This document shows positions 14,331 to 41,766 of a stretch of 55,788 bases of DNA, piece by piece. How positions within the stretch are numbered: the stretch's first letter is position 1; each line of letters begins with the position of its first letter. Position numbers and translations under genes: made by a program. The notes under the pieces were generated by a model, which did not search any database, had not been told where the DNA came from, and worked only from the letters and a program-made list of their open reading frames with translations. The DNA comes from a virus (taxonomy: Duplodnaviria > Caudoviricetes): the IMG/VR virus record IMGVR_UViG_3300035494_000076, positions 1-55,788 of that record; one strand, written 5' to 3'.

Positions 14331-14704
14331 AGACACTTTAAGTAAAAGGCTACTTAAATTGCGGCTTCAAGTAGTGATACTTGTCGAATAACTTCGTTAA
14401 ATCAGGGGAACTCTTAGCAAGTAGTGTTGAAGACAATCCTGAGATTTTAGTTTTGTTGTGATATAATAAATAATGTAGTAATTCAACAATAAGATGAAGA
14501 GGTGCATTATTTATGAAAGATTTCATTAATTACTACGAAACTAGAATTGCAACGACTATCCCTGACGGGAGTACACCATAAGCGATTGATGGTGGAAAAG
14601 CGAAGCAACTCATTGAGTTGGTGATATAGTCTAATCTGCATAGAAATGTGTAGCAGTTCTGAATAGAACGGTATATGGTGTAGCGATCATGTGCGAATAT
14701 AATG
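14331..14704 (+). mobile_element. Group I intron (IA2-like) in nrdB, 374 nt, homing endonuclease deleted
   Basis: Splits the conserved IAR|DExxH motif; exon ends in T, intron ends in G; P AAATCAGGGGAA, Q AATCCTGAG, R CAACGACTA, S GATATAGTCTA; P3 CTTCG/CGAAG; P7 GACTA/TAGTC. Confidence 0.93.
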
Positions 14705-15124
14705 GATGAAAGCCTTCACGTAGGTTTAACTACTTACCAAATTAACACTTTACCAAAAGAAGATGAGGACTATGCAAAAATTGCTAAAGATTCTTATGAC
14801 GAGATGGTAAAAGTATATAATGATGTCGTACATCAGGAAATTGATTGGGTTAAATATATCTTCAAAGAGGGGTCTATGCTAGGGCTTAACGAAGATATGC
14901 TAAGTGAGTATATCTATTACTTAGGAAGACAGAAGATTAAACAATTTGGTTTCAAGGAAGAAGATATTAAGTTTCCTATCATTAAATCAAACCCTTTACC
15001 TTGGATGGACAACTGGCTTAATTTGTCTGCTACACAGTCTGCACCGCAAGAGATTGAACAAATCAACTATCGTGCTGGTGCTGTTGATTTGAATGATTCC
15101 GACTTGGGTGATTTTGATTTTTAA
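14705..15124 (+). CDS. nrdB: Ribonucleotide reductase beta subunit, exon 2
   Basis: DESLH, EIDW..Y, NPLPWM and APQEIEQINY motifs. Confidence 0.95.
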   Translation, partial: DESLHVGLTTYQINTLPKEDEDYAKIAKDSYDEMVKVYNDVVHQEIDWVKYIFKEGSMLGLNEDMLSEYIYYLGRQKIKQFGFKEEDIKFPIIKSNPLPWMDNWLNLSATQSAPQEIEQINYRAGAVDLNDSDLGDFDF

Positions 15125-25539: not shown

Positions 25540-26150
25540 ATGAAGCAAGAAATAAGAAAATTGATACGAGAATCCCTTATGTAGGCGCAACAGCTAAATG
25601 AAGCTGTAAGATTTGGTAATAAACAGATTGCAGAGGTAATGCGCCATGCTAATAGTTTTCTAGTTGGTGGTGAGTTTGAGTTCTCATATGGCGATATTTC
25701 GTCTGATGTTGATTCTTATATAGATTCAGTGTCTGCTTATGAAGTAGACGAAGCGTATGGCAAACGTATGGAAGAAATATACGAAACCCTTGGTGATGCT
25801 TTTGCCATTATACATCTATCCGAGTCCGAAAGAGTATTTGAAGGAGTATTGGAGACTGGAAACTATGGCGAGGTTGATGTTGAGTACGCAGAAGAACTTC
25901 GCCTAGCAACCCAATACTTCTCGAAGATTCACCAAAGTGTTGCAAACGAAAATAGAATCATCGAAGCATTAGAATACACATACGGAAATGATATATTTGA
26001 TGAAGTCATAGCGAAAGCACCGTGGGCTATGCGAAACTTATCAAAACTCAAGCACAACATAGAGAATGGTGAATATGACGAAAATTTGGTGTCTGAGATA
26101 TACCAATACTTATTATACGTGAATGGGGTAGACCTCATCCAAGAACGATT
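25540..26150 (+). pseudogene. Truncated internal-head-protein-like gene
   Basis: AATAAATA and SD, then MKQEIRKLIRESLM*AQQLNEA with in-frame TAG at 25582; runs into a half terminator at 26149-26164. Confidence 0.65.
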
Positions 26151-26190
26151 GGGGATTTTTTTTTATCCCACAATAAAAGGAGAGATTTTT

Positions 26191-27390
26191 ATGTTTAAAC
26201 TGCCATCACTACGACAAGCGAAACGTCTAGTTAAAAAATATAAGCATTTTGTGATGAAAAAAGAAATCATTGATGGGAAAACTGTTTATCAATTCGACTA
26301 TCTTTTAGCAAGCCCAAAAGACTTCACAGTAACCCCTTATGCAAAAGAACTAAGAGGCATTGCTTATGTTTCCTCATTCTTTGGATTAATCAACGAAACT
26401 GTACCAATGCTACATAAGTTTCACAATCTTAATGAGTGTGATGGTTATATGTTCGATGACTTAAATGGATGGGTAGTCTTAGGTATTCAGGAAAAGGATG
26501 ATGGGTCTGTTATTAACTTCATCAATATTGCTGGAAAGTTTTATGCCAAGTCTAAGTATTCATTCCAATCATATCAGTCACAGAAAGCCCAAGAACTTTT
26601 TGATAATAGTTCAAACCTTCAGAAGTGTGTTTCATTTTTCTATGATATGGGATATACGCCAATCTTTGAATTAGTTGGTAGAGATAATCCTATTGTTGTT
26701 GAATATGGAGACTTGGAACTAAGACTTATTCAGATAAGAAGTACAGAAACTGGTAATTATGTTCATCCAAAAAATATTCTAATGTGGGCAGGACACTTCA
26801 ACGTACCAACAGGAAAGTTTGATCCTATCATGGGTCTTGAACCAACATTCGGAAACGTATTTGACCGATACTACAAAGACAAAGTAGAAACCTTAGAAGG
26901 GATAGAGGGTTGGGTGTTTACACTAGAACACCCAATAACAGGAGAAACTAAATTAGTCAAGGTTAAGACAAAATGGTATCTAGCCCTTCATGGTATAATG
27001 ACTGGCTCAACATTGTTTGCTAATAATATCATTGAGTATATCCTAACCGATACGATTGATGATGTTGTTTCTAGTATGAAGTTTGTTGAAAACGATTTCC
27101 GTAAGAAGTTTATTGATGAAACAATAGAAACTATTGACAACTACTATAATACGGAATATACTAGACTTGTTAATATTCTTGAAAAGTATAAGCATATGGA
27201 TAACAAAGAGTTTGCTAATCAATATAAAACTACTCCAAACTTCCATGTACTGATGGCGGGGCGAAAAGGGAAAGATGTTGGTAAACTTCTTAAAGAATCC
27301 ATCATCCGTCAAACACGCAAAAAAGAAATGGCTGAGACTTTTCTACAAGATATAAAGGAGAAAGATAATGGAAGTATTACAGTGGTTTAG
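26191..27390 (+). CDS. rnlA: RNA ligase 1 (T4 Rnl1/gp63-like)
   Basis: SD AGGAG before ATG 26191; ELRG, KFHN, motif I EKDDGS, FELV..DNPIV, EGWV and KVKT.WY. Confidence 0.9.
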   Translation: MFKLPSLRQAKRLVKKYKHFVMKKEIIDGKTVYQFDYLLASPKDFTVTPYAKELRGIAYVSSFFGLINETVPMLHKFHNLNECDGYMFDDLNGWVVLGIQEKDDGSVINFINIAGKFYAKSKYSFQSYQSQKAQELFDNSSNLQKCVSFFYDMGYTPIFELVGRDNPIVVEYGDLELRLIQIRSTETGNYVHPKNILMWAGHFNVPTGKFDPIMGLEPTFGNVFDRYYKDKVETLEGIEGWVFTLEHPITGETKLVKVKTKWYLALHGIMTGSTLFANNIIEYILTDTIDDVVSSMKFVENDFRKKFIDETIETIDNYYNTEYTRLVNILEKYKHMDNKEFANQYKTTPNFHVLMAGRKGKDVGKLLKESIIRQTRKKEMAETFLQDIKEKDNGSITVV

Positions 27391-28417
27391 AAAAAATCAT
27401 CCAAACGTTTTAGAAAGAATGAAGAATGTTCCGCATGGATATGTGGATGGATATTTAGAAAGTTATTCTCCATATCATTTAGAGGGTGATGTGTATACCC
27501 ATACCATGCTAGTATATAGCCATGCGGCTAAAAATTTTGCAAATGAGCCGGAACTTCTAGCCGCACTATTGCATGATTATGGTAAAGTGTTTACAGCATT
27601 TGATGACCACGAGAAGCAAAGAAGATTTTTCCGTGGACATGAGGGGGTTTCTTTCTTTCGTTCCATTAACATTGTAAAAGAATATATGCAATCTTCCGAT
27701 ATGGGTAATCTATCAGAAGAAGCAAGAGATGAATTGACGAAAGCTGTTTTATTTGCAATCGCAAATCATGGAGTTGGTTTTAACCATAACCCAAGAACAA
27801 AAGAAGATGTAGAAAAATTGGTTTCTGTTGTTAATAAAACTGAAAAATATATGTTAGACGGATTGATGGAAGCAGATTATTTGGGGAAGATTTGTGAGAA
27901 AAAGAACAAGAAATCCCTTGACCTTTTTCAAGTTGTCGGAGTCGATAAACCACCTGTAGACTTCTATAAGGAAGTTGTTATTATGGTTGGATTACCAGGT
28001 TCAGGAAAGTCTACTTATATTAAAAATAACTTACCAACGCACTCGGTTGTTTCAAGAGATGAAATTGTGGAAGCAATGAATCCTGATATGAGTTATGCCA
28101 AAGCATTTAGAAATGCAGACCAAAAAGAAGTTGATAGACTTCTCATGGAAAAGTATAATGAATCGTTAAAAACATCAACTAAGGTTGTGGTTGATTTAAC
28201 TAACCTTTCTAAGAAGTCAAGAAAGAAATGGATTACACTAGCTAGACAAAAGCAATTTAATGTTCGTGCTGTTATTATGGCAACCGACTTTATGGACTGT
28301 TGTCAGAGAAGAAATGCAACTGAAAAGATTGTACCTTATAGCGTCATTGCGGATATGTCAACCAAGTTCACCTACCCTCTTGGTGACGAAGTTGATGCTG
28401 TCCAAATGGTTATATAA
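27368..28417 (+). CDS. HD phosphoesterase + P-loop polynucleotide kinase (HD-Pnk)
   Basis: HLEGDVYTHT, LLHDYGK and GHE motifs; GLPGSGKST, SRD and DLTNLS..SR. Confidence 0.88.
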   Translation: MEVLQWFRKNHPNVLERMKNVPHGYVDGYLESYSPYHLEGDVYTHTMLVYSHAAKNFANEPELLAALLHDYGKVFTAFDDHEKQRRFFRGHEGVSFFRSINIVKEYMQSSDMGNLSEEARDELTKAVLFAIANHGVGFNHNPRTKEDVEKLVSVVNKTEKYMLDGLMEADYLGKICEKKNKKSLDLFQVVGVDKPPVDFYKEVVIMVGLPGSGKSTYIKNNLPTHSVVSRDEIVEAMNPDMSYAKAFRNADQKEVDRLLMEKYNESLKTSTKVVVDLTNLSKKSRKKWITLARQKQFNVRAVIMATDFMDCCQRRNATEKIVPYSVIADMSTKFTYPLGDEVDAVQMVI

Positions 28418-29251: not shown

Positions 29252-29695
29252 ATGAAAATCTTCCAAACCATTCTTCTTTTCGCAGTCTACCTTCCAATTT
29301 TATATTTTGGACTTCAAGCTGATTCCTACCCAATTCTAACATGGGCTTCTTATTTTATTCTATTTTTATTCTTTTTAGGTTCAGCAGGTAGTTTCTTGAT
29401 CGGAAACAGAATCGAGAGAGTTTTATTTGACATGATGAATAAAAACGAAGCACACTCTATCCATAACTTTGCAGAAAAAGGATTCGGCTTCATACAGACC
29501 ACACTTTTTGCGTTACCTGTCACATACATCTTATTCATTAATGGGCATGCCACGACGGCGGCATTATTCTTGACATCTTATCTTATTGGTGTATACTACT
29601 TGTTTAAAATGAAAAAAACTGCCAGAGTATTCAGTTCGGCAATCCTACTGAAAAGAGAAAATGATTTATATAAAATTTATGGAGATAAGCTATGA
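29252..29695 (+). CDS. Multi-pass membrane protein
   Basis: About four hydrophobic segments. Confidence 0.7.
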   Translation: MKIFQTILLFAVYLPILYFGLQADSYPILTWASYFILFLFFLGSAGSFLIGNRIERVLFDMMNKNEAHSIHNFAEKGFGFIQTTLFALPVTYILFINGHATTAALFLTSYLIGVYYLFKMKKTARVFSSAILLKRENDLYKIYGDKL

Positions 29696-30618
29696 AGAAG
29701 TTGTTAGTTGATAAGTATCGCCCAGTTAAGTTAAGTGATTATGTCTTTCAAACAAAATCAAATGAGCGCAAGATTAAGAAATGGTTAAATGAGAATTCAA
29801 TCCCTAATGTTCTAATGTCAGGACCACCGGGTACAGGTAAGACAACCATGAGCCGCATTCTAGTTAATGAGTTGGGCATTGATGATATGGATGTCTTAAC
29901 CATCAATGCGTCATTAATGAAATTAGAGGACATCAGAGAAAAGATTATTCCATTCTTAGGAAAGAGTTCATTCAGTGCTTTCAAGATTATTCAGCTAGAA
30001 GAAGTTGATAGATTGAACTATAGCCAAACCAAAAGCCTACTATCGCTCATTGAAGACAACAGTGATCGTGTTCGTTGGATATTGACTTGTAACTATGTTT
30101 CTAAATTAGACACAGCACTTCTTTCTCGGTTTGAAGCAGGTCATCTAGTTATGGATGAACTCAATGAGGATGGTGTTCTTGAATATATCATTAATATCAT
30201 CGAACAAGAAGAAATCATTGTTAATGATGACATGGACTTACTATCTCACATTGATGCCTATTGGAGTGATATTCGAAAAATCTTGATGTCCATTGAAGGA
30301 CATTTGGATAGTGATAATGTTCTGCATAGCCTAGAAACAAAGTCTGGCTCTACTGATGTTGCAGAGTTCGAAGCAATCTTTAGACAAGGTGAAGCAAAAG
30401 AAAGACTAGCGGACTTACTAGAACTTACCGCACACGTTGATGCTAATAACTTTGAATGGTTCTACACGGTGTTATATGAAACGGCAGGTAAGAACTTTAC
30501 AGACGTTGGGGAATCTGTTATTATTATTGCAGAATCATTGGATAGAGCATTGCGTAGTGCAAACCAACGACTCACGTTGGATGCCTGTTTGTATAAACTG
30601 TTTATGGGAGAAGAATAA
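29692..30618 (+). CDS. gp44: Clamp loader ATPase subunit (gp44-like)
   Basis: DKYRP, GPPGTGKTT, INAS, EEVD, LTCN and LLSR motifs. Confidence 0.93.
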   Translation: MKKLLVDKYRPVKLSDYVFQTKSNERKIKKWLNENSIPNVLMSGPPGTGKTTMSRILVNELGIDDMDVLTINASLMKLEDIREKIIPFLGKSSFSAFKIIQLEEVDRLNYSQTKSLLSLIEDNSDRVRWILTCNYVSKLDTALLSRFEAGHLVMDELNEDGVLEYIINIIEQEEIIVNDDMDLLSHIDAYWSDIRKILMSIEGHLDSDNVLHSLETKSGSTDVAEFEAIFRQGEAKERLADLLELTAHVDANNFEWFYTVLYETAGKNFTDVGESVIIIAESLDRALRSANQRLTLDACLYKLFMGEE

Positions 30619-30620
30619 GA

Positions 30621-32780
30621 ATGAATGTACTGAGTCTTTTTGATGGTTTAAGTGGCTGTCGCATAGCGCTTGAGCGCGTAGGCATACCCCCTTCAAAATA
30701 TTATGCGAGTGAGATTGATAAATATGCAATCAAAGTAGCGCAAGCCAATTACCCCGATACGGTGCAATTAGGGAGTGTGACAGAATGGCAAAACTGGGAT
30801 ATTGATTGGTCGAGTATTGACTTGGTGACAGGTGGCTTTCCATGCTTTGTTGCAGGTACGCTTGTTACAACAAGGGATGGTCTAAAGCCAATCGAGGAAG
30901 TTAAGAAAGGTGACGAGGTTATTACGCACAAACATCGCTTTAAAAAAGTTGTTGTACCCATGATTAAAGTTTCAGACCACTTTAATTTAGTAAAAATACA
31001 AGGCAGTCATGAGCTAAAAGTGACAGATGAACACCCATTTTATGTTCGTGAGTTGAGTAGAAAATGGGATAACGAATTAAGAAGAGATAAGCGTTGCTTC
31101 TCAGAGCCAAAGTGGGTTGACTGTAAGGATTTGACCACAAATCACTTTGTAGGCGTACCTATCAACCAAAACTCAATTTCCCCAAGTTTCAGTAGTGATA
31201 TTCATTTTTGGTATATGATTGGCCGATATGTTGCAGATGGATATAGCAGCACTACAAATAAGCATAGCCGTGGTAAGGACAATTCTAAAGCTGACAGACG
31301 AGTTTATAAGACAATTATTACTTGCGGAAAGCATGAAGAACCTCAAATGGATTCAATTATAAATTCAGTTGATTACCATACAACAAAATCTGTAGAACGA
31401 ACAAGTATTAAGTACACCATCTCGAATAAAGAATTATGGGAGTTTGTGCAATCTTTTGGGCGAGGTGCTGAAAACAAAGAGATACCGCCATTTTTATTTG
31501 ACGCACCAATTGAGATTATTAAATCGTTCTTAAATGGTTATTTATCAGGTGATGGCTGTTTAATCCACAGTGAAGAATATAAACGCAATAAGAACATGAG
31601 CCAGTTGACAACTGTGAGTGAAAAGTTGGCTTATGGTTTAATACAGCTTGTGCAAAAAGCATACAAAACTCAGCCAACAATAACAAAAGCAAAAGTTGCT
31701 TCAAAGAAAATAATTGAGGGTAGAGAGGTTAATCAGAAACCATTTTTTGCCGTTCGTTTTTATAAACAAAAACCTAGACTAGCAAAATATTTTGAAGAAG
31801 ACGGCTTTATATGGACACCATTTAAATCAAAAGAACGCTTTGAGGAATCAATTCCTGTTTACAATTTTGAGGTTGAAGATGACAATTCTTATGCGGTTAA
31901 TAATTTAATCGTACATAACTGCCAGGCCTGGTCGGTCGCTGGTAAACAGATGGGCGATAAAGACGAGCGCGGTATGTTGTTTTGGACTATGCTTGATGTG
32001 ATGAAGCAGGTTAGGAAGCACAATCCAAATGCCCATTTCTTGGTTGAGAACGTCAAGATGAAGAAAGATTTTGAACAGTACATCACCCATCACACCGTAC
32101 AAGCGTTAGGTGAGGTGCATAAAATCTTGATTAATTCAGCATTAGTATCGGCTCAAAACCGTAATCGGTATTATTGGACTAGCTTCCCTGTAACACAGCC
32201 CGAAGATAAGGGCATTGTGTTGGCGGATATTATTGAGAGCGGTGAAGCAACTGGTGAGATGACAACTAAAAATGGTAAAAGTTATGGACTAACAGCGTCT
32301 TATGGAGGGGCGGTGGCATGGAATAGCATAGCTAAAAAGCAAGGGTCTATGATTTTAGAACGCCCTTGTGAGCCACGTGAATTTAATGAAAATTCAATCT
32401 GTCATCGTGAGCCTAAGGTTTTATGCGGTGCTATGCGTGGGCGATACATTGTTGATGGTAAACGACAAGACCATAAAATGAAAACAGCAGGATTGACCGA
32501 GCAAAGGCTAGAAATTAGACAGGATGAAAAAACCAACAGCCTAACAACGGTGCAAAAAGATAATGTTGTGGTTGAAGACTTGAAGGCGCTAACTTATCGC
32601 AAACTCACACCGCTGGAATGTGAGCGGTTACAAACCTTGCCTGATAATTACACAGCACACGTGAGTAATTCGCAACGTTACAAGATGATTGGTAATGGCT
32701 GGACTATTGACGTTATTGCTCATATACTGCATTGTATGTTAAGTCCACCAAAAAAGAAAGAAAGCCTATTTGGGTTTTAG
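30621..32780 (+). CDS. C5-cytosine DNA methyltransferase containing an intein
   Basis: LSLFDG, GGFP|CQ, ENV, Q.R.R and RYKMIGNGW motifs. Confidence 0.95.
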   Translation: MNVLSLFDGLSGCRIALERVGIPPSKYYASEIDKYAIKVAQANYPDTVQLGSVTEWQNWDIDWSSIDLVTGGFPCFVAGTLVTTRDGLKPIEEVKKGDEVITHKHRFKKVVVPMIKVSDHFNLVKIQGSHELKVTDEHPFYVRELSRKWDNELRRDKRCFSEPKWVDCKDLTTNHFVGVPINQNSISPSFSSDIHFWYMIGRYVADGYSSTTNKHSRGKDNSKADRRVYKTIITCGKHEEPQMDSIINSVDYHTTKSVERTSIKYTISNKELWEFVQSFGRGAENKEIPPFLFDAPIEIIKSFLNGYLSGDGCLIHSEEYKRNKNMSQLTTVSEKLAYGLIQLVQKAYKTQPTITKAKVASKKIIEGREVNQKPFFAVRFYKQKPRLAKYFEEDGFIWTPFKSKERFEESIPVYNFEVEDDNSYAVNNLIVHNCQAWSVAGKQMGDKDERGMLFWTMLDVMKQVRKHNPNAHFLVENVKMKKDFEQYITHHTVQALGEVHKILINSALVSAQNRNRYYWTSFPVTQPEDKGIVLADIIESGEATGEMTTKNGKSYGLTASYGGAVAWNSIAKKQGSMILERPCEPREFNENSICHREPKVLCGAMRGRYIVDGKRQDHKMKTAGLTEQRLEIRQDEKTNSLTTVQKDNVVVEDLKALTYRKLTPLECERLQTLPDNYTAHVSNSQRYKMIGNGWTIDVIAHILHCMLSPPKKKESLFGF
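30843..31919 (+). mobile_element. Intein (359 aa) with LAGLIDADG homing endonuclease
   Basis: Starts CFVAGT; block B TDEHPF; IGRYVADG and LNGYLSGDG; ends VYNFEV...VHN; +1 residue is Cys. Confidence 0.95.
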
Positions 32781-32792
32781 TAAGGAGAGTAT

Positions 32793-33203
32793 ATGGATAA
32801 CTTATTTGCATTTTTTGATGCAATGAACGCTGAAAACTATGATTATGTGGATTCAATGACTGATGAAGAAGTTAAAGCACTATCTCCATTTGTCCTATTG
32901 ATGTGGGCTAATGGGGCTGTTGACAATCCACACATCCACACAATATTAACGGATACTTATGTTAATCCTTATGTGTTTAGTTTATCCAAGCACCCACGAC
33001 TTCTTCTTAAGTTAATGGTTACTGCTAATGGTGGTATCGATAGAACGCGATACAAGTTTAAGAAGTCTGTTACAAAAGAACAATCAAATCTTATTAAGAT
33101 TATTGCAGAACACTATCAGTGCGGTTATAATGAAGCCAAGGAGATAAAAGAACTTCTTAGTAAAGATGATTTAAAAGAGTTGGAGTCTTTGTATGGTAAG
33201 TGA
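32793..33203 (+). CDS. gp62: Clamp loader small subunit (gp62-like)
   Basis: SPFVLLMW and IAEHYQCGYNEAKE..LLS; position after gp44. Confidence 0.75.
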   Translation: MDNLFAFFDAMNAENYDYVDSMTDEEVKALSPFVLLMWANGAVDNPHIHTILTDTYVNPYVFSLSKHPRLLLKLMVTANGGIDRTRYKFKKSVTKEQSNLIKIIAEHYQCGYNEAKEIKELLSKDDLKELESLYGK

Positions 33204-33408
33204 TTTTTCAAAAACACTTTTTGTAACGTCTAAGGTTAAATCCGATGATGGAGTATTGGAAATCCACGTAATATCAACAAAAGGTTGTGCAAAAATAACA
33301 ATGAACACCACTACTATGATATATGGTGCAGACCTTGAAGTGTTTTGTGAATACCATAAGGAGAGAATACAAGAGTTGCGCGACTTAATGATAATGGAGG
33401 AGTTATGA
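33193..33408 (+). CDS. Microprotein with C-terminal tag (DLMIMEEL)
   Basis: Coupled ORF. Confidence 0.7.
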   Translation: MVSDFSKTLFVTSKVKSDDGVLEIHVISTKGCAKITMNTTTMIYGADLEVFCEYHKERIQELRDLMIMEEL

Positions 33409-33653
33409 TAAATCACAGCAAAGACTTCAAAAACTATGTTTACAAAACAGACATAATGTATAATGGCGGTGAATACTTTTTTAATCTTCATTTTGGGGAT
33501 TTAACCTTTACCCTAACGACAAACGGTCTGTCATTACATTGGTCAGCTAAGACTGATACAATGGATAAAAATAAAGTTATCGACGATTTTTATAAAACAT
33601 TCAAATCTGATATTGACGGCTTAAGAGACCTTTTAGTTATGGAGCAGTTATGA
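33405..33653 (+). CDS. Microprotein with C-terminal tag (DLLVMEQL)
   Basis: ATGA-coupled ORF. Confidence 0.75.
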   Translation: MINHSKDFKNYVYKTDIMYNGGEYFFNLHFGDLTFTLTTNGLSLHWSAKTDTMDKNKVIDDFYKTFKSDIDGLRDLLVMEQL

Positions 33654-33841
33654 CTCCTAAATATGGCGATGTTATGGTTTCGGAAGAAACTGAGATGATT
33701 TATCTTAACGAAGATGGCTGGGTAATTTTTGGGTTTCCAAATTTTGATGATATGTATAAAGAAGATATTCAGAACCTAGCAAGACAAGGACTAAGCTACA
33801 TAAGCATTGCACAATTGTATGAAGCGATGAGGGGATTATGA
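33650..33841 (+). CDS. Microprotein with variant tag (LYEAMRGL)
   Basis: ATGA-coupled ORF. Confidence 0.7.
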   Translation: MTPKYGDVMVSEETEMIYLNEDGWVIFGFPNFDDMYKEDIQNLARQGLSYISIAQLYEAMRGL

Positions 33842-34065
33842 GAGAACGTTTCTACTATGGCGAGTATGAGTTCATTTTTCCAAAATTCTTTGGAAAACGG
33901 AACATGATAGAATTCTACGACCCAAAGCGTGGGAAAGTCTTGGGGTGTTACTTTGTAGAGAACAAAACAGTCACATATTCAGACTACTCAAAGCAACACA
34001 ACATCTACATATCCAATAGTGCGATAAAATTTGCTTTGGATGTTTATCTTATGGAGGAACTGTAG
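33838..34065 (+). CDS. Microprotein with C-terminal tag (DVYLMEEL)
   Basis: ATGA-coupled ORF. Confidence 0.75.
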   Translation: MRERFYYGEYEFIFPKFFGKRNMIEFYDPKRGKVLGCYFVENKTVTYSDYSKQHNIYISNSAIKFALDVYLMEEL

Positions 34066-34262
34066 TGATTAGAGAAATGGAAGTTGACGGATATACGTTA
34101 CACGCTAGAGGGAATGAGGTGGAAGTGTATGATGAAATCTTTCAGCGATCTGTGTGCATTGTTGAACTAAGCGGTAAGGTTTCATATTACTATGATGATA
34201 GGTTTGTTTCTAAGAAAGTTGTTCAGCAATGCAAAGATTTATTAACGCTAAACAATATTTGA
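34065..34262 (+). CDS. Microprotein with C-terminal tag (DLLTLNNI)
   Basis: GTG start overlapping the TAG; SD GGAGG. Confidence 0.7.
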   Translation: MIREMEVDGYTLHARGNEVEVYDEIFQRSVCIVELSGKVSYYYDDRFVSKKVVQQCKDLLTLNNI

Positions 34263-34286
34263 CAAAACTTTCCTTTCTGTTATAAT
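34259..34286 (+). promoter_or_regulatory. Sigma70-type promoter
   Basis: TTGACA-N16-TATAAT with TG extension. Confidence 0.75.
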
Positions 34287-34315
34287 GCCTCCATAGAATA
34301 CGTTTGGAGGTTATA

Positions 34316-34981
34316 ATGACAATCGCAGTAGCTAATGACGTCGAAAAACTATACGAGAATGGACTAATAAGCCACTCTGACGGCACGTTTGAGTGCCCTG
34401 TGTGTCATAAGGTATATAAAAGAAAAAGCAACGCCATAGCCCATTTAAATAAGCAGGATTGCTACTCGCTTCTTGATATATTCAAAAACACCGCCAATGA
34501 AACTCGTGGCTTATCCTTATACAAAACATTGGTATCTGCGGTTAATCCTCAAGCAAGAACAAGTCTTAATGTTTTTAGAAAGAGTAGATACTATAACCCT
34601 GTTATGCGTTACATATCTTTTTCGGCAATCCATGAACTTGGTAAACTTTCAGAAGATTACCTTGATTGGTTAATCCAATATAAGAACTTCTCAAATGTCA
34701 ATGCCTTACTTTCTAATGCAACCAAAGAATCATTCCTTAGAGAATTTAGATTGTTTTTACAATCTCATGGTGATATAATGATAGACTCAAAGACATTCAT
34801 CGAAAGATATAAGCAAGACTTGATAGATGACCAAAACTTCTTTATAAGAAGTTTAGAGAAAGGGCATTTGTGGATTGGTTACTTAACACCAGACATATTT
34901 CCGATTGATGATGTATACGAATCCCTTGACCTAGACTATAAATTTAGATTTGAAAAAATATTGGAGGAAATTGAAAAATGA
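34316..34981 (+). CDS. Zinc-finger protein
   Basis: CPVC-x12-H-x5-C; SD GGAGG before ATG 34316. Confidence 0.7.
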   Translation: MTIAVANDVEKLYENGLISHSDGTFECPVCHKVYKRKSNAIAHLNKQDCYSLLDIFKNTANETRGLSLYKTLVSAVNPQARTSLNVFRKSRYYNPVMRYISFSAIHELGKLSEDYLDWLIQYKNFSNVNALLSNATKESFLREFRLFLQSHGDIMIDSKTFIERYKQDLIDDQNFFIRSLEKGHLWIGYLTPDIFPIDDVYESLDLDYKFRFEKILEEIEK

Positions 34982-35160
34982 AATATCGTATCGAAGTTGA
35001 CCAAACGCGAATGGTGTATGTATTAATCGACACCGTGAATAAAACGATTATTGCGGCTAACAAGAAATCTAGTGTTTTGTATGACCATGCACTTACATTA
35101 ACAGGAATGGAGAGAACCGCAAGTGTTCTAAATTCTCAGTTGCAATGTTACGGTAAGTAA
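34978..35160 (+). CDS. Hypothetical protein
   Basis: Coupled ORF. Confidence 0.6.
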   Translation: MKYRIEVDQTRMVYVLIDTVNKTIIAANKKSSVLYDHALTLTGMERTASVLNSQLQCYGK

Positions 35161-35162
35161 TA

Positions 35163-35459
35163 ATGAGACAACGAGATATTTTGTTTGAACAAATTAAGGA
35201 ACGTATCCTTACCTTAGAATATTCTTTTCATAAGATGCACGAAACATTAGAAAACCTAACAAAGTGCGTTGATGGGTTGGTTGAAGATATGAACCGCAAT
35301 GAAGAAACTCTGCAGGTTGTTGCTGATGTTGTGTATGGTGTTAGGGATGGTTTAGAATCAACTACTAAGGACTTGTCAGATTTAGAAAACCTTGTAGATA
35401 AGATTGATGGAATTGTTGCGGATATTGCGCCATTCATCGACACATTCAGGGGTGTATAA
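35163..35459 (+). CDS. Coiled-coil hypothetical protein
   Basis: Heptad pattern. Confidence 0.65.
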   Translation: MRQRDILFEQIKERILTLEYSFHKMHETLENLTKCVDGLVEDMNRNEETLQVVADVVYGVRDGLESTTKDLSDLENLVDKIDGIVADIAPFIDTFRGV

Positions 35460-35521
35460 TCTGTGAAAAATTCAGCTGATTCTTATACTACCACGGAAGA
35501 CTTATTATTAATGGAGATGAT

Positions 35522-36109
35522 GTGAAAAATCTATTCGATGTTGATATTGACACCACCACTAAAACCGATAAAACGCTGTATGGTATACCTGCTATGATAT
35601 ACAACGAAGAACAGGAAAGAATTAGCCCACATCCTTCTGGTGTTTATTTAGAAGATGTACCAATTGATACAATGACAGGTTTATGTGCATTTGACTATAA
35701 GTATGGCGATGCTAACGGTTTTATGAAAGTTGATATACTCCATAACAGTGTCTATGATATTTTTAAATCTAAGGAAGAAGTATCGACTGCGGTTGGGAAT
35801 GACATCGATTGGTCTTTATTAGAAGATGAATCTGTTGTTAAGACCTTACCACACTTAGCTAAACACTTTGATACTGTAAAGAAACTGAAACCAAGGTCTG
35901 TAGAGGATTTGGCTGATGTGTTAGCACTCATTAGACCTGGTAAGATTCATTTGCCCCAAGACTACATAAGAGACAAAGAAAAGGTTAGACGTTTTTTATA
36001 TAAAAGACCTAGCAGTGGAATTTATTTTAAGAAATCCCACGCCATATCATATGCTATGATGATTAAGGCGTATATCTACAAAAAACATCAGTCTATGTTT
36101 TGTTGGTAA
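35522..36109 (+). CDS. Minimal DNA polymerase III alpha (C-family)-like protein
   Basis: DVDID, HPSGV, KVDIL, ALIRPG and FKKSHAISYA match DnaE core motifs. Confidence 0.85.
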   Translation: MKNLFDVDIDTTTKTDKTLYGIPAMIYNEEQERISPHPSGVYLEDVPIDTMTGLCAFDYKYGDANGFMKVDILHNSVYDIFKSKEEVSTAVGNDIDWSLLEDESVVKTLPHLAKHFDTVKKLKPRSVEDLADVLALIRPGKIHLPQDYIRDKEKVRRFLYKRPSSGIYFKKSHAISYAMMIKAYIYKKHQSMFCW

Positions 36110-36407
36110 ACTTAAAAGTCTGCTTATTTGGTTTTTGGGTTATTAGTTTCTTTGAAGACCTTTTAATGGCACTCTTGTTTATCATAATGGGAGGGGGGAT
36201 TTGGTGGTGATTGAAATATAATGACTTGTAAACACTAAACCGCATATCTGAGAAGTACAACTTATAAATGATTGCCGCCATTGACAGTTCGGGGTCATCA
36301 TTGTTTGACATATCATAGATGGTGATATGCTTTGATGAAACGTAATCAACAATCCCTACAATTTTAAGTGTTGATGTTTCGATTGTGTCTAACAATTCTT
36401 CTTGCAA
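36093..36407 (-). CDS. Late hypothetical protein
   Basis: SD AAGGA, TTG start, minus-strand TATAAATA at 36441-36448. Confidence 0.65.
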   Translation of the reverse strand: MQEELLDTIETSTLKIVGIVDYVSSKHITIYDMSNNDDPELSMAAIIYKLYFSDMRFSVYKSLYFNHHQIPPPIMINKSAIKRSSKKLITQKPNKQTFKFTNKT

Positions 36408-36461
36408 TTTGAATCCTTTAGTGTTAAAATCTGTTTTATGTATTTATAAAGGAGAAACTGA

Positions 36462-36791
36462 GTGGGTTATAGAACAACACTTCGTTCAAAATACTACTAC
36501 CAAAAAATGCAGATAGAGGTAATGGTTGATTTTGGAAACAAATTAGAATTTTTTGAAGTTGATGCAAAAAAGGCAAACGAATTTGTAAAAAGTAACTTGG
36601 GGTTATCTGTTACTTTGGATGTTGACCCGGCGACTGAGTGTTTGTTATATCAATCAGAGGATGGAAGTTATCGTGTATATCCTATATGGAAACTCAGTTC
36701 ACTCTCCACCGATGAAGTTCTAAGACTTTCTAATATTCTTATGAGTGGTGAGATAAACATTAAAGATGCTATTATGTTGGCAAGTTTATAG
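36462..36791 (+). CDS. Small protein with C-terminal tag (DAIMLASL)
   Basis: SD AGGAG, GTG start. Confidence 0.7.
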   Translation: MGYRTTLRSKYYYQKMQIEVMVDFGNKLEFFEVDAKKANEFVKSNLGLSVTLDVDPATECLLYQSEDGSYRVYPIWKLSSLSTDEVLRLSNILMSGEINIKDAIMLASL

Positions 36792-36801
36792 GGAGGACTC
36801 T

Positions 36802-37018
36802 ATGGAAGACACACAATGCAAATGATAGTGAAGTAATTCAATCGTTAAGAAAATTGCAAAGGGTGTATAACAAAAGAGATGCAATATTGCTTGGCTATGA
36901 TAAAACATTCGTTGCTCTGGTGGGTGAGCATGATATTCAAGTTAAAGATTTTGAAACTGCGTATGATATGCTTAAGCAGGAAAAATTTCGAGACTACTTA
37001 CTAATGCGAGAAATTTGA
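36802..37018 (+). pseudogene. Frameshifted microprotein with C-terminal tag (DYLLMREI)
   Basis: GGAGG-ATG 36802 frame stops after 7 codons; another frame is open as HNANDSEVIQ...FRDYLLMREI*. Confidence 0.6.
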
Positions 37019-37134
37019 TGAGTGTTCGTGTCGATATTGGTGGTAAAGAATATGAATGGGTGAATGACTGGCTAATGGGGATGAAGGTAGTGGTCTGTGA
37101 ACATAAAGACGCATTGGTACTAGCAAAGCTATGA
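37018..37134 (+). CDS. 38-aa microprotein with C-terminal tag (DALVLAKL), absent from the ORF track
   Basis: TGATG/ATGA coupling at both ends: MSVRVDIGGKEYEWVNDWLMGMKVVVCEHKDALVLAKL. Confidence 0.65.
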   Translation: MSVRVDIGGKEYEWVNDWLMGMKVVVCEHKDALVLAKL

Positions 37135-37382
37135 AATATGAAGATGAAACTGTAACCATTGAGACAATATCCAGTTCATTTGTACTAGAACTAAATTCCA
37201 TTCCAGATGTCACTATCGCAACTGTTCAAATAATGGGAAGGCTGTGGAAAGTCGTATTCCTACGTGCAGACGGAAGCATTGATGAGAAAATCATAAAACC
37301 ATCTTCAATGTATTTGAACGATGAAGAAGAAAAGAAGATAAACGAGTTGGGCATTGATGTTTTAATGATGCACGAATTGTAG
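37131..37382 (+). CDS. Microprotein with C-terminal tag (DVLMMHEL)
   Basis: Coupled ORF. Confidence 0.7.
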   Translation: MKYEDETVTIETISSSFVLELNSIPDVTIATVQIMGRLWKVVFLRADGSIDEKIIKPSSMYLNDEEEKKINELGIDVLMMHEL

Positions 37383-37391
37383 GGGGAACTG

Positions 37392-38345
37392 ATGGGAATA
37401 CTAACAAATCACTTTGAAGACCTAAAGCAAGAAATAGTCATCAGAGCAAATCTAGGGTCTAAGGAGAATACTGGGTTTCATGCAGTATATTGTCCAATTT
37501 GCAACAAAACTGATAGAAAGACGGGTGGATTTAAGTTTGAATCTGATAAAATAGTCTACCATTGCTTTCGTGGTTCTTGTGATGCTTCAACTGTGTATGA
37601 ATTTGGTAAACCCATTTCAAAGAAGTTTAGAAGTCTTATGGACTCCATTGGTGTTACCATCCCAACTCAACTTTTGATGGTTAAATCATCATTTCAAAAG
37701 ACCTTAGAAAGTTTAGATGAAAGACTATATAAGAAGCATTACTACCGAGACGTTCACAAACTTGAACTGTTCATTAAATCCGAACATTCTAAAAAAGTGA
37801 ACAGAGAATATTGGCAGTATTACTTTGAGTCTCGACATTGTGACATGAATGGTGTTCTAATATGCGATGAAGGGAAATATAAGGGGTGCTGTGCCATTGA
37901 AATGAAGTTCTATGATAAGACCATAGGGTATCAGATATTAACCCGCAGAGGCGATTATATAAAGCAGTATGATGGCAACACAAATCTACTCTATATTCCT
38001 GACGGAAATATTCGTGATACGGTTATCTTGGTTGAAGGAACAATGGATGCAAAGTGCTTCCCTAACGCTATAGCAACACTTCAATCAAAAATTTCTCCAG
38101 AACAAGCCTACCATCTGAGAGGCAAGAATGTTATAATGCTCCCTGATATGGATGGGTCTAACCATTTCATCGAACAGTTTATGGATTATGGGTGGAAGAT
38201 TTCCATACCAGATTGGGGAGTTAAAGATTTGAATGAAGCAGTTATTAAGTATGGTGTTATTGTGGTGGCTGAAATGATTATGGAGGGGATATGCACGAAC
38301 AAGAACAAGGCAAACGCATTATACAAAATGAGGAAGATTTCGTGA
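37392..38345 (+). CDS. gp61: DNA primase (Zn ribbon + TOPRIM; gp61-like)
   Basis: CPIC...HCFRGSC; VEGTMD, PDMDG and KDLNEA motifs. Confidence 0.85.
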   Translation: MGILTNHFEDLKQEIVIRANLGSKENTGFHAVYCPICNKTDRKTGGFKFESDKIVYHCFRGSCDASTVYEFGKPISKKFRSLMDSIGVTIPTQLLMVKSSFQKTLESLDERLYKKHYYRDVHKLELFIKSEHSKKVNREYWQYYFESRHCDMNGVLICDEGKYKGCCAIEMKFYDKTIGYQILTRRGDYIKQYDGNTNLLYIPDGNIRDTVILVEGTMDAKCFPNAIATLQSKISPEQAYHLRGKNVIMLPDMDGSNHFIEQFMDYGWKISIPDWGVKDLNEAVIKYGVIVVAEMIMEGICTNKNKANALYKMRKIS

Positions 38346-38581
38346 ACCTTTGTATTGCCACATATGTTGATGACGTTTTACAAAACAAAATGAAATTATA
38401 TAAGACAAGGTTTTCGGTCAAGAGTGTCAATGACTATGCAACCCGTAATGGGATTGATTTTATTAAGTCTTTTGGTGAGTTCGGTTGTCATGTTTATTCT
38501 GATGGAACAATGTATATACCAAACAATCAAAAACACATTGACACCGCAAAAGAAATATGTAAAACTATGAAGAATTTATAG
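38342..38581 (+). CDS. Small hypothetical protein (ends TMKNL)
   Basis: GTGA-coupled to the primase gene. Confidence 0.6.
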   Translation: MNLCIATYVDDVLQNKMKLYKTRFSVKSVNDYATRNGIDFIKSFGEFGCHVYSDGTMYIPNNQKHIDTAKEICKTMKNL

Positions 38582-38596
38582 AAGGGAGAATAACCA

Positions 38597-39916
38597 TTGA
38601 GTGAAGAAATTATTGACAAGAAGCAAAAACTATTGATTGAATACCTAGTATCATCACCATCAATTTTTGCTAAGTGTTACAGTATCACCAAGCCAGAATA
38701 CTATGATGCACCACTTGATAGAGTGGTCGAGTTTATCCTAGACTTCTTTATGAAGCATGGTGGAATTCCTAAGCTTGATGTTATTGATGCTGAAACTGGT
38801 GTAGCCTTAAAAGAACAGTCCATTGATATTCCATCTGATATGGAATATTTCTTAGAGGAATATGAATCATTCTGTAAAGATTCTGCAATGGCTAAGGCAA
38901 TCTTAGCTGGGGTTGATCTAGTAAATGAAGGCAAATCCAATCAAGTAGAAGCCTTAGTGAGAGAAGCCATGCTTGTTAAACTTGATAAGCATATTGGTCT
39001 TGATATTTTTAAGGATGTTAAAGATCGTATTGACACAATGGATGATAATGTTGTAAACTACTCAACAGGTTCAAAATCTATTGATGAACTTATTGGTAAT
39101 GTTCGTAAGGGTGAGTTGATTGTTACCACGGCTGTTTCCTCTGGTGGCAAGTCATTGCATTTAGGTAATATGTCGATTGCTTTATCACAGCAAGGGCTTG
39201 ATGTGGCTGTTATCTCTTTAGAGTTGAATGAACAGTTATATGCCAAGCGTATGGATGCCATGATAACAGGGATTGCCATTGCTGACCACAAGAAGTCTGC
39301 TAATGATATTGATGCCATAATGCAACAAAAGCGTAAGGAAATGGCTAATATTACCATTAAGCAGTTACCACCAGGTTCAACAGCCTCTGATATTCGTGCA
39401 TACTTATTAGAATATTCTTTAGAATTTAAGAAGTATCCAGACGTTTTAGTCATTGACTATATAGGAATCATGGGTTATAATACAAAAAGTTCAAATAAGT
39501 TTGACCAAGACGAAGAAAAGGCTATCGCATTAAGACAGATTGCTGTAGAATATGATATGATTGTATTAACAGCCCAACAACTTAATCGTGAAGCGGCTAA
39601 TGTTGTTGATGTGACTTATGCACACTTGGCGGGGGGTTTGTCATTGGCAAACAATTCTGATGCCTTGATTGCCATTGTGCAATCTGAACAGGACATTGAG
39701 AATAACCAAGTACAAGTAAGAGGATTAAAGCTTAGAAACTCACCTAAGACGACTAAGCCAATCATCTTATATAGATGCCCAAAGACCTTACGGTTTAGTG
39801 ATTCACCAAACGCAGGTAACATCACCGTAACAACTAAACCACCTTTTGTTAAGGATAAACATAAAGACGAATCAAAAGGTCAATCAAAATTAAAAAAAGC
39901 TTTACAACGTAGATAG
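38597..39916 (+). CDS. gp41: Replicative DnaB-like helicase (gp41-like)
   Basis: SSGGKS, ISLEL, IDYIG, TAQQLNR and KLRN motifs. Confidence 0.93.
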   Translation: MSEEIIDKKQKLLIEYLVSSPSIFAKCYSITKPEYYDAPLDRVVEFILDFFMKHGGIPKLDVIDAETGVALKEQSIDIPSDMEYFLEEYESFCKDSAMAKAILAGVDLVNEGKSNQVEALVREAMLVKLDKHIGLDIFKDVKDRIDTMDDNVVNYSTGSKSIDELIGNVRKGELIVTTAVSSGGKSLHLGNMSIALSQQGLDVAVISLELNEQLYAKRMDAMITGIAIADHKKSANDIDAIMQQKRKEMANITIKQLPPGSTASDIRAYLLEYSLEFKKYPDVLVIDYIGIMGYNTKSSNKFDQDEEKAIALRQIAVEYDMIVLTAQQLNREAANVVDVTYAHLAGGLSLANNSDALIAIVQSEQDIENNQVQVRGLKLRNSPKTTKPIILYRCPKTLRFSDSPNAGNITVTTKPPFVKDKHKDESKGQSKLKKALQRR

Positions 39917-39924
39917 AAAGGAGT

Positions 39925-40665
39925 ATGACAATGGATATTAAGTTAACAAAGGCATTATTAACAGAGTTAAGTTCTGTTGGAATCTCACAAATGATTGTTG
40001 ACCCTGTTGAAGGTGGTACACAATTTCGTGGGACTAATGATAACCGTTCATTGATTTTGTTTGATACGATTAGAGAAGAACTAACCACCAGTCCCATCGG
40101 CATTAAGTCAATCAATGCCCTTTTATCTCGAATCAATTTGTTTGATGAAGATAAGGCTAAGATTGAGTTGATTGATACAGACGAAGGGTTCTGTCGTGAT
40201 ATTATTGTTAAGCATGGGCGTAAGCGTGTTACATATCGTTGCCACGAACCAAGCCCAAAATACATTCAAGCACCAAAACATATCCCAGGTAACTTTACAA
40301 TTACCGCAGAAAATGCTATAATGTTTAACAAGGACTATGTTTCTTACTTATCAACTGCCATCTCAGCAATGGCATATACAGGTGATAAAGAAGAACGTTC
40401 GATTAAAGTGACAGCCAATGAAGGTGTTGTTACGGTAAGCATCTTTGACGGAAGTGATGATTCATTCGTTGATGTTGTTGAAGGATTTGATGAAAATCTA
40501 AAACTTGAGGGGGTATTTGATGTTGCGTCATTCAGTCGAGTTATGAAACAATCGGTGAACAGTCCGTCCAATGATGGGTTTGCGGTGTTCACCATCAGCG
40601 AACAGGGTGTTGGTGTGTTCCGACTAGAATATATGGATATTCTTGTTCATCCATCAGTTAGCTAG
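39925..40665 (+). CDS. gp45: Sliding clamp (gp45-like)
   Basis: Size about 246 aa, beta/alpha pattern, position among replisome genes. Confidence 0.6.
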   Translation: MTMDIKLTKALLTELSSVGISQMIVDPVEGGTQFRGTNDNRSLILFDTIREELTTSPIGIKSINALLSRINLFDEDKAKIELIDTDEGFCRDIIVKHGRKRVTYRCHEPSPKYIQAPKHIPGNFTITAENAIMFNKDYVSYLSTAISAMAYTGDKEERSIKVTANEGVVTVSIFDGSDDSFVDVVEGFDENLKLEGVFDVASFSRVMKQSVNSPSNDGFAVFTISEQGVGVFRLEYMDILVHPSVS

Positions 40666-40713: not shown

Positions 40714-41766
40714 ATGGGTATTCTATCAAGCCTAAAGAAAAGCAAAAACTCATTGTTGGATCAAGTTAAAAAACTTCAGAGTCAAGGACATGAACAAGAC
40801 AAGCGATACTTAAATTACTACGACCTAAAGGACAATGAATCAATGAAGATTCTTATTCTTCCTGATACGAATGGTGACTTGTTTGTTAAGTATAAGAAGC
40901 ACGGACCAAACCTTCACTACATTGATGCTAAAGGTCAACGTCAAGGTATTCGTGGACTTCCGTCAATAGGCGTATATCCGAATGATTCAGAATCGCCTGT
41001 TATGCAGAAAGGTTATGACTTACTGCAACTTCACAAAGATACAGGCGAGGCTTATTATAAAGAAGAAGCTAAGAAGTGGTTTGCTAAAGAATATACTGTA
41101 ATGTCTTGTATTGTTCTTGACTCACCATTTGAAGTGAATCACTCACCTGATGGGAATGATGTTAAGTTAGTCAATGTTCCATACAAAGTTGAACAATACA
41201 TCATCAACCAAATCATGGATGAAGTAATCAGTGAAGAAGAACTATTTACAACACCGTTTATTCTTAAAAAGTCTAAGAACACTGGTGGTTGGACTTCTTA
41301 CGAAACATCGTACTTTGCTCGTAAGGCATTAAATGTAGACGAGATGAATGATATTGAAGAAGCAATGAATATTACCTTGTTTGACTACAAGGTCATTGAT
41401 ATTGTTCCTCCTACACCGACCATTGATGAATTGGAAGAATGGTTGGCTAAGGCTGAAGCGGCATACGAAAAGGCAACATCAGGTGGTGGCAATACTGATG
41501 ATTCTTCGGATGAGGATGAAGAAATTCCAGTTAAGAAAACAGCAGGGACTTCTTTGAAAGACCGAATCAAGAAAGCACCAGTGAAGGTTGAAGAAGAGGA
41601 AGAAGACGATATTCCTTGGAATGATGAACCCCCCGCTAAACCAAAGAAGGTAGCAAAGGTTGAAGATAAGGAACCAGAAGAAGTTGATGATGAACGGGAG
41701 AAAGAAGAAGCACCTGTTAAGAAATCAGCACTCGCTGAACGTCTAGCCAAGCTTCGTTCGAAATAA
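40714..41766 (+). CDS. gp32: Single-stranded DNA-binding protein (gp32-like)
   Basis: ILILPD and KK...GWTSYETSYF motifs; acidic tail. Confidence 0.8.
   Translation: MGILSSLKKSKNSLLDQVKKLQSQGHEQDKRYLNYYDLKDNESMKILILPDTNGDLFVKYKKHGPNLHYIDAKGQRQGIRGLPSIGVYPNDSESPVMQKGYDLLQLHKDTGEAYYKEEAKKWFAKEYTVMSCIVLDSPFEVNHSPDGNDVKLVNVPYKVEQYIINQIMDEVISEEELFTTPFILKKSKNTGGWTSYETSYFARKALNVDEMNDIEEAMNITLFDYKVIDIVPPTPTIDELEEWLAKAEAAYEKATSGGGNTDDSSDEDEEIPVKKTAGTSLKDRIKKAPVKVEEEEEDDIPWNDEPPAKPKKVAKVEDKEPEEVDDEREKEEAPVKKSALAERLAKLRSK

Follow-up and report, generated by a model that had tools for sequence, protein, structure and literature searches.

The window analyzed here is the entire IMG/VR record IMGVR_UViG_3300035494_000076, a 55,788-nucleotide fragment of a phage genome (55.8 kb, 36% G+C). 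Within its replication region, a series of small open reading frames (ORFs) with dissimilar bodies ends in a common C-terminal tail, in which the original prediction had seen an Asp at −8, Met or Leu at −4 and Leu or Ile as the last residue (position −1). We find that the enrichment of this tail at gene ends is real, lies far beyond chance and is replicated across two genomes. The tail is dual-coded, its last four codons specifying both the protein motif and the ribosome-binding site of the next gene. We tentatively read the ORFs as a lineage-specific expansion of small early proteins whose one retained C-terminal amphipathic helix would be a contact surface common to all.

The original prediction listed ten tails, all of which we located in the sequence and its translation. 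An eleventh, absent from that list, surfaced via a repeat (D3). The tail-bearing ORFs of the window are as follows (SD, Shine-Dalgarno sequence; ATGA overlap, stop and next start sharing four nucleotides).

33193-33408, plus strand: 71 residues, tail RDLMIMEEL; ATGA overlap to the next ORF, with the SD GGAGGAG within the tail.
33405-33653, plus strand: 82 residues, tail RDLLVMEQL; ATGA overlap; matrix score 17.1.
33650-33841, plus strand: 63 residues, variant tail LYEAMRGL.
33838-34065, plus strand: 75 residues, tail LDVYLMEEL; its stop runs into the GTG start of the following ORF; matrix score 16.4.
34065-34262, plus strand: 65 residues, tail KDLLTLNNI without an SD; last gene of cluster 1, with no coupled downstream gene.
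35463-35525, plus strand: micro-ORF of 20 codons with a GTG start, tail TEDLLLMEMM and almost nothing else; matrix score 14.4.
36462-36791, plus strand: 109 residues, tail IKDAIMLASL; SD after the stop; member of the prototype family described below.
36802/36854-37018, plus strand: 54 residues if TTG 36854 is the start, tail RDYLLMREI; matrix score 17.5.
37015/37018-37134, plus strand: 38/39 residues (ATG 37018), tail HKDALVLAKL; ATGA overlap.
37131-37382, plus strand: 83 residues, tail IDVLMMHEL; SD after the stop; directly upstream of the primase gene.
38291/38342-38581, plus strand: between the primase and helicase genes, weak variant tail ICKTMKNL.

The ORFs tile the plus strand, and for 10 of 10 the annotated frame has the top codon-usage score of the six frames. 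The start of the last ORF is likely GTG 38342, an in-frame codon that overlaps the primase stop and gives a product of 79 residues. The micro-ORF is the eleventh tail; its stop overlaps the GTG start (35522) of a gene with a DNA polymerase III (PolIII) finger domain, and in the same slot the relative G001 (introduced below) carries a 78-residue tail-bearing ORF (L001 2863-3099). The tail-only micro-ORF shows that the tail outlives the body. We agree with the original prediction that the ORF ending RDYLLMREI is frameshifted, unless TTG 36854 is its start: the SD and ATG at 36802 yield only MEDTQCK*, a frame that closes after 7 codons, and the body sits in the +1 frame, which is open from 36764. 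The anomaly at 36802-36860 may reflect a sequencing error, a pseudogene or the TTG start. At the end of cluster 1, a sigma-70 promoter with 12/12 consensus positions (34259-34286, plus strand; TTGACA, 16 nucleotides, TG-TATAAT) overlaps the stop of 34065-34262 with its −35 box. A TTGACA also lies directly after the corresponding stop in G001. A search of PHROGs with ten tail ORFs returned no significant family (best E 0.04), and Pfam gave no family for 36462-36788, the sole tail ORF searched there.

We scored the tail at gene ends against internal positions. With the pattern of the original prediction, to which F and T were added at −7, 8 gene ends of the window match, compared with 12 matches at 16738 internal positions. 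Six of the eight lie within a greedy 111-gene set, in which 33193 and 33405 are displaced by a spurious minus-strand ORF. The unmodified pattern holds up in G001, the sole close relative reached (an IMG/VR contig of 62 kb with loci L001 and L020, with a primase 72% identical to that of the window), where over 25 kb it matches 6/52 gene ends and 4/7623 internal positions. In nine more distant loci it matches 0 or 1 gene end each, and both single matches (L005, L015) are the gene directly upstream of primase.

Matrices trained on one genome recover the tails of the other. A matrix built from 26 G001 tails places 6 of 115 window gene ends above a score met by 0.098% of internal windows, and the top seven of the 115 all come from the originally predicted ORFs. 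In a scan of all six frames, each stop codon was scored by the ten residues that precede it. With the matrix trained on G001, 8 of the 3082 stops in the window exceed a score of 5; seven of them lie at 33.4-37.4 kb on the plus strand, and the eighth, at 43049, is a likely false match. With the matrix trained on the window, 17 of the 1374 stops in G001 exceed that value, and 16 of these are ends of cluster ORFs, including a previously missed ORF ending at L020:1803. A profile built from the final 20 residues matches only the window at 33.3-37.4 kb (6) and G001 at 22.7-41.5 kb (18), all of them training rows, and finds nothing in G002 (94 kb), G003 (99 kb) or an Alishewanella phage (141 kb), 335 kb in total.

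For composition, we used a set of 36 cluster ORFs from the window and G001 that was hand-picked from the cluster slots, so that its raw residue frequencies are inflated: position −1 is L/I/M in 36; −4 is M in 27 and L in 5; −3 is E in 23; −2 is E in 17; −8 is D in 15; and −9 is K/R in 16. Small ORFs of the same regions that lack the tail were omitted (window 34978-35160 and 35163-35459; L001 106-339, 370-789, 801-1016, 977-1390, 1403-1882 and 5407-5571; L020 32-415). The usual last four codons are ATG GAG GAR NTN followed by a stop that overlaps the next start or precedes it by 1-10 nucleotides; GGAGGA therefore acts as the SD of the next gene. The Glu pair at −3/−2 and the fixed register are explained by this second role of the last codons, which also encode the SD and the stop-start junction. 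At −3, GAG outnumbers GAA 18:5. In the window, 4 of 10 tails contain GGAG or GAGG together with an ATGA or TAGTG overlap, and in 3 of 10 the SD follows the stop or a downstream gene is missing. These last three (34065, 36462, 37131) read N-N, A-S or H-E at −3/−2 and retain the Asp, the hydrophobic residues and the terminal Leu or Ile.

The original prediction suggested that the conservation acts on the protein and proposed to set it against a background constrained by SD and ATGA overlaps. The enrichment survives that comparison, since 43 other genes of the same two genomes that have a coupled downstream gene mostly lack the motif residues. D at −8 is found in 15/36 cluster genes and 1/43 other coupled genes (Fisher p 1e-5), M/L at −4 in 32/36 and 8/43 (p 2e-10), and L/I/M at −1 in 36/36 and 9/43 (p 2e-14). 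The DNA pattern ATGATGGAGGAANTNTRA, used as a control only, has more than 120 single, mostly non-coding, unrelated matches in viral contigs. Among unrelated viral contigs we counted 79 ATGATGGAGGAA-NTN-stop sites with 35 stop-free frames, of which two carry D at −8, one being G001 itself.

Synonymous codon use was compared with the expectation from codon usage. Tail pairs sharing both residue and codon number 62/121 at −8 (72.8 expected), 10/50 at −5 (11.2) and 84/308 at −1 (70.7), with a slight excess of identical codons at −7 (40, 30.5 expected) and −6 (39, 25.5 expected). T is enriched at codon position 2 alone (0.56 vs 0.31 in bodies), and position 3 is flat (0.37 vs 0.36). Protein-level conservation thus stands for Asp-8, the hydrophobic run, Met-4 and the terminal Leu/Ile, whose synonymous codons are free, and falls for the Glu pair and the register, which are driven by the SD. 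We detected no RNA structure at the junctions (folding z −0.4 to +0.8 in 9/10, −1.64 in the tenth) and no significant concerted evolution, as tails are no more alike within a genome than between genomes (p=0.24).

The pattern of residues is that of an amphipathic helix. Across 32 aligned tails, hydrophobic peaks fall at −14/−13, −11/−10, −7 to −4 and −1 with polar positions between them, and Gly or Pro occurs 0-1 times at −13 to −1, 7 times at −17 and is enriched at −17/−18. The helix of the original prediction is borne out by this alignment and by AlphaFold2 (AF2), with a length of about 16 residues rather than 8. For the 33193 product, AF2 gives a mean predicted local distance difference test (pLDDT) of 87.3, with 2/5 models confident: four strands are followed by helices 48-54 and 56-70, and the tail lies in the second of these (pLDDT 86 for residues 61-70). 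For the prototype 36462-36791 (8 sequences, alignment A3) the tail is placed in helix 100-108 at a pLDDT of 45.7, a value for which we excluded the model from fold searches. Both secondary-structure strings, one from a confident model and one from a poor one, have the strands first and the C-terminal helices last.

Foldseek with the 33193 model returned nothing at E<=1e-3 in PDB or BFVD, and a wide VIA search gave a best Z of 5.7, which is not significant, to sheet-plus-helix domains. The ESM Atlas offered no usable lead for 37131-37379 and 33193-33405 (Atlas models at pLDDT 0.51 and 0.50, feature scores <=0.76). Complex prediction with the helicase (A7), the primase (A8), the 104-residue protein encoded at 36093-36407 (A4) and the prototype (A3) as partners gave no answer (score 0.00); the fold of the partner itself was uncertain, and the result is neutral on binding.

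The tail has a conserved prototype. In every relative, the gene directly upstream of primase, usually overlapping the primase start, ends I-K-D-h-h-x-h-h-x-L (h, hydrophobic). Its products are poorly conserved proteins of 99-143 residues (203 in the short contig L017), and the window member is 36462-36791. The prototype tail is present in all relatives, and the expansion of tail ORFs is seen in the window and G001 only. The tail of the 37015 ORF equals the prototype tail at 6/9 residues. A word-based protein search with 36462-36788 returned only the query; repeated with alignment A3, it retrieved just 6 proteins, all from this sparse family. When the other tail ORFs were searched with a profile of that family, the lowest E was 0.24, which shuffled controls also reach.

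The bodies of these proteins show little similarity. We compared the 36 proteins after removal of the last 10-12 residues (630 pairs). In agreement with the claim that the bodies are unrelated, only 2/630 pairs reach a BLAST E<0.05, and both are cross-genome orthologs. Smith-Waterman scores of body pairs have a median z of −0.05, with 4.4% of pairs at z>3 and four pairs at z>5. The shortest protein has 20 residues and the longest 193, and some seem entirely helical by eye (e.g. L001 5009-5188). Only 3-4 positional ortholog pairs are recognizable between the window and G001, at 24-42% body identity, compared with 72% for the primases. The 33193 product and its ortholog share 41% identity by BLAST and, in a global alignment, 42% of the body and 6/9 tail residues; an exhaustive HMMER search with these two sequences (A6) over 1.84 billion representatives returned just the two. 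The product of 37131-37382 matches its counterpart (L001 5697-5987) in 32% of the body and 5/9 of the tail, and 38291-38581 aligns with L001 6954-7202, which ends TYMMLEEI, at z 4.6.

Contigs of sequencing runs X3 and X4, which come from another study, carry a further strain over parts of the clusters. The contigs from other runs are short and of low depth, and the parts that they leave uncovered are uninformative. In this strain, 33650-33841 ends in LYEVMEEL, not LYEAMRGL (A>V at −5, R>E at −3, G>E at −2). Three nucleotide changes are involved, AGG GGA becoming GAG GAA; both versions are purine-rich and the SD is kept. In the first 30 codons of 33838-34065, the variant strain has 6 nonsynonymous and 0 synonymous differences, counting only the best-supported ones. 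Over 33550-33954 and 37725-38155 the X3/X4 contigs are 6-10% divergent in some small ORFs and near-identical elsewhere. They also show a more divergent allele of the primase gene, with joints skipping 85-126 nucleotides.

Taken together, these ORFs form a lineage-specific set of small early genes occupying slots between conserved replication genes, at least 11 in the window and about 27 in G001. Each protein ends in one amphipathic helix of about 16 residues, the last nine being [K/R]-D-h-h-h-M-(E)-(E)-[L/I]. The SD and the stop-start junction set the register and the Glu pair, and selection on the protein keeps Asp-8, the hydrophobic run, Met-4 and the terminal Leu/Ile. The extra copies probably arose in the window/G001 lineage, their bodies diverging or being replaced past recognition. 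The explanation that we favor, tentatively and knowing that it may well prove wrong, is that the helix serves as a shared contact surface. It would dock either on other tails or on one partner used by all, such as a replisome protein, a host hub or a protease, with the variable bodies supplying individual activities. For a contact function we count that all 36 proteins of the set terminate exactly after L/I/M and that four successive hydrophobic residues span more than one helix face.

Several observations weigh against this explanation. The evidence base is two genomes, the window and G001, and the residue frequencies stem from the hand-picked set noted above. Ortholog tails are just moderately better kept than the bodies (6/9 vs 42%; 3/9 vs 28%). 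The excess of weakly similar bodies hints at cryptic paralogy, because 4.4% of pairs lie at z>3 where about 1% would be expected (from an extreme-value null, an expectation that was not computed). As the weak VIA matches (Z <=5.7) of the 33193 model are to sheet and helix domains, the tail may in this protein be a mere part of the fold. No tail partner emerged from the computations here.

The main rival is one that we consider rather unlikely: the ORFs would be highly diverged paralogs of one fold, a small alpha/beta protein derived by tandem duplication from the primase-adjacent gene, in which the C-terminal helix evolves slowest because it is the core of the common fold and serves neither a shared partner nor a tag function. 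Tandem same-strand clusters beside the prototype gene, a conserved module of about 16 residues rather than 8, the order of strands and helices in both AF2 strings together with the sheet-plus-helix VIA matches, the excess of body pairs at z>3 and the likeness of the 37015 tail to that of the prototype would all fit such a family. The bodies, however, show no significant similarity by BLAST, Smith-Waterman or profile search, and a core helix needs no exact C-terminal end, yet 36/36 proteins have one. One common fold is also unlikely given the range of lengths and because some members look all-helical or are just 38-40 residues long, too small for a four-stranded fold. Equally doubtful in our estimate is a bolder form of the explanation that we favor, a portable C-terminal address tag that would mirror the N-terminal capsid targeting sequence of T4 and direct dozens of unrelated, fast-replaced early proteins to one hub (the replisome, a host machine or a protease for timed removal). 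The tag would have been copied from an ancestral primase-adjacent replisome protein, its last codons doubling as a ribosome-binding site through which every new cassette can be expressed.

The remaining alternatives place the function of the tail in cis or in the DNA. The last 8-9 residues could act as a nascent peptide that sits in the exit tunnel at the stop codon and tunes termination or re-initiation on the overlapping next gene, much as TnaC-type leader peptides have key residues at a fixed distance from the stop. The motif is indeed anchored to the stop and independent of the body, most carriers overlap or abut the next start, the 20-codon tail-only ORF directly upstream of the PolIII-finger gene resembles a leader ORF, and the motif is weaker in the last gene of cluster 1. 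We nevertheless regard this reading as improbable: the 43 other coupled genes of the same two genomes manage without the motif, and it is kept where the next start is at least 10 nucleotides off or absent (34065, 36462, 37131). This sequence is not known to have a precedent among nascent peptides, and no literature search was aimed at such signals. A scarcely better or worse prospect, and if anything a slightly poorer one, is a recombination junction in which the tail-coding stretch and the SD provide short homology for swapping or inserting cassettes, in the manner of the PeSL cassettes of T4-type phages discussed below. Bodies turn over while junctions stay, with 3-4 recognizable ortholog pairs despite 72% primase identity; some junctions share 13-25 of 16-33 nucleotides (families D3, D5); and at −7 and −6 identical codons slightly exceed the expectation. 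Apart from this, though, synonymous sites vary as freely as those of the bodies, with T in excess at codon position 2 only; within-genome tails are no closer than between-genome tails; the junctions have no stem-loop (folding z −1.64 to +0.77); and a full-consensus promoter occurs only once, at 34259-34286.

Least credible of all is that the tail is a pure by-product of coupling, an SD and ATGA overlap read in frame. ATG GAG GAR TTA TGA does carry GGAGGA at the right spacing, as in 4/10 window tails and most G001 tails, and the DNA pattern turns up singly in the unrelated contigs. This accounts for the Glu pair and the register alone. Other coupled genes and the unrelated contigs lack Asp-8, the hydrophobic residues at −7 to −5, Met-4 and the terminal Leu/Ile, and the Asp, the hydrophobic residues and the terminal Leu/Ile persist in tails without an internal SD. 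As a full explanation it is refuted by the codon analysis, the unrelated-contig control and the comparison with coupled genes.

Profile and homology searches show that the tail ORFs are interspersed among clamp-loader, zinc-finger, PolIII-finger, primase and helicase genes. The neighboring features are as follows.

29692-30618: clamp loader.
30621-32780, plus strand: C5 DNA methyltransferase of 719 residues, interrupted by an intein-like insert.
32793-33203, plus strand: clamp-loader small-subunit-like protein (phrog_225, phrog_11758); cluster 1 begins directly after it.
34304-34981: zinc-finger protein.
35522-36109, plus strand: 195-residue protein with a DNA polymerase III alpha finger domain (PF17657, 6.1e-7; phrog_11778, 2.7e-49).
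36093-36407, minus strand: conserved gene for a protein of 104 residues (alignment A4).
37392-38345, plus strand: DNA primase (tblastn to annotated phage primases; 72% identity to G001).
38597-39916, plus strand: DnaB-like helicase (PF03796, 2.5e-17; 186 relatives).
39925-40665: clamp-like protein of 246 residues (aligned, A5).
40714-41766, plus strand: 350-residue protein with no family match, possibly a single-stranded DNA-binding protein (SSB).

The closest isolates are Alishewanella phages, at a primase identity of 42%. Scanning metagenomes with the alignment of primases turned up just 6 loci and nothing nearer than G001, and a megablast of 33000-39000 against the phage collection gave zero matches. 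Helicase relatives (P0010-P0018) are known at 62-82% identity. The 195-residue PolIII-finger protein is kept in all relatives, and its conservation as a stand-alone gene suggests that the replicative polymerase is split into pieces. The gene at 36093-36407 is alone in the replication operon in lying on the opposite strand. In all relatives it diverges from the prototype tail gene (A4, 8 sequences, 27-62% identity to the window protein). In the methyltransferase, residues 1-75 and 434-708 match methyltransferase families and the middle matches families that bear inteins or endonucleases, so the insert is probably an intein.

Other C-termini and gene arrangements of the window were recorded alongside. 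The methyltransferase ends KKKESLFGF, which we take to resemble the clamp-binding tails of T4-type polymerases. An ORF of 140 residues (14702-15124, plus strand) that ends DLGDFDF aligns with the ribonucleotide reductase small subunit in its C-terminal part only, over profile positions 263-402 of 504; the small-subunit gene is seemingly split into an upstream piece (13626-14345), a gap and this ORF. The basic C-terminal helix of the 40714-41766 product (ALAERLAKLRSK in the window) is conserved, with similar versions in all relatives, and the G001 counterpart of this protein has in addition an internal acidic stretch containing DDIPF. At 25639-28417 (plus strand), a polynucleotide-kinase-like protein (phrog_505, phrog_6931) comes after an RNA ligase (phrog_562); T4-type phages have such an RNA-repair pair too.

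Small orphan early genes form the largest block of unknown function in phage genomes, and a shared helix offers one handle on about 40 of them. A single bait peptide could expose a common partner, and the tag might be used to deliver or destabilize cargo in infected cells. If the address tag is real, the tail-only micro-ORF could serve as a competitor peptide. Here four codons belong to a protein motif and at the same time provide the ribosome-binding site for the following gene, a clean natural case of dual coding that bears on how new phage genes are born and made expressible. Should the ORFs prove to be ordinary paralogs, they would still be a family evolving so fast that one helix alone survives.

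We found no published description of the tail in the literature searched, in which not every wording was tried. Translational coupling resembles it in that GGAGGA lies 4-9 nucleotides before the next start, within the last four codons, and reads M-E-E; coupling alone lacks D-8, the hydrophobic run, M-4 and the invariant terminal L/I. The PeSL promoter-terminator cassettes and hyperplastic regions of T4-type phages (PMC2839356, PMC4122927) likewise bring small, fast-turnover unknown ORFs into slots between core genes with a boundary element at each ORF. PeSL is non-coding promoter and stem-loop DNA, whereas the element here is coding, conserved as protein and free of an RNA structure signal. 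Codon sharing at its boundaries is near expectation, unlike in a mobile regulatory cassette, which would repeat one nucleotide motif, promoter and stem-loop from ORF to ORF.

A further comparison is with docking peptides at the extreme C-terminus, such as the tail of the ribonucleotide reductase small subunit, the T4/RB69 polymerase tail that binds the sliding clamp and the C-terminal tip of SSB. Like these short hydrophobic or acidic peptides that plug into a partner, the tail would bind through its last residues. The known peptides use aromatics and belong to one conserved protein each, whereas the present tail uses Met and Leu and is carried by dozens of unrelated small proteins. The aromatic pair of the clamp-type consensus is absent from the 36 tails: F occurs at most once in 36 at any of −8 to −5 and never at −4 to −1, whereas Y is confined to −8 to −6.

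Among known systems, the one nearest in concept is the capsid targeting sequence (CTS) of T-even phages, a peptide that is cleaved off by the prohead protease. This short terminal peptide is described as the sole feature common to a diverse set of internal proteins (PMC3012670), and the likeness lies there, in a short conserved terminal peptide as the only common feature of highly diverse small phage proteins. The tail has no sequence likeness to the CTS, and nothing ties it to the capsid. The CTS is N-terminal and leads into the scaffolding core and encapsidation, whereas the tail described here stands at the extreme C-terminus of proteins encoded in early replication operons.

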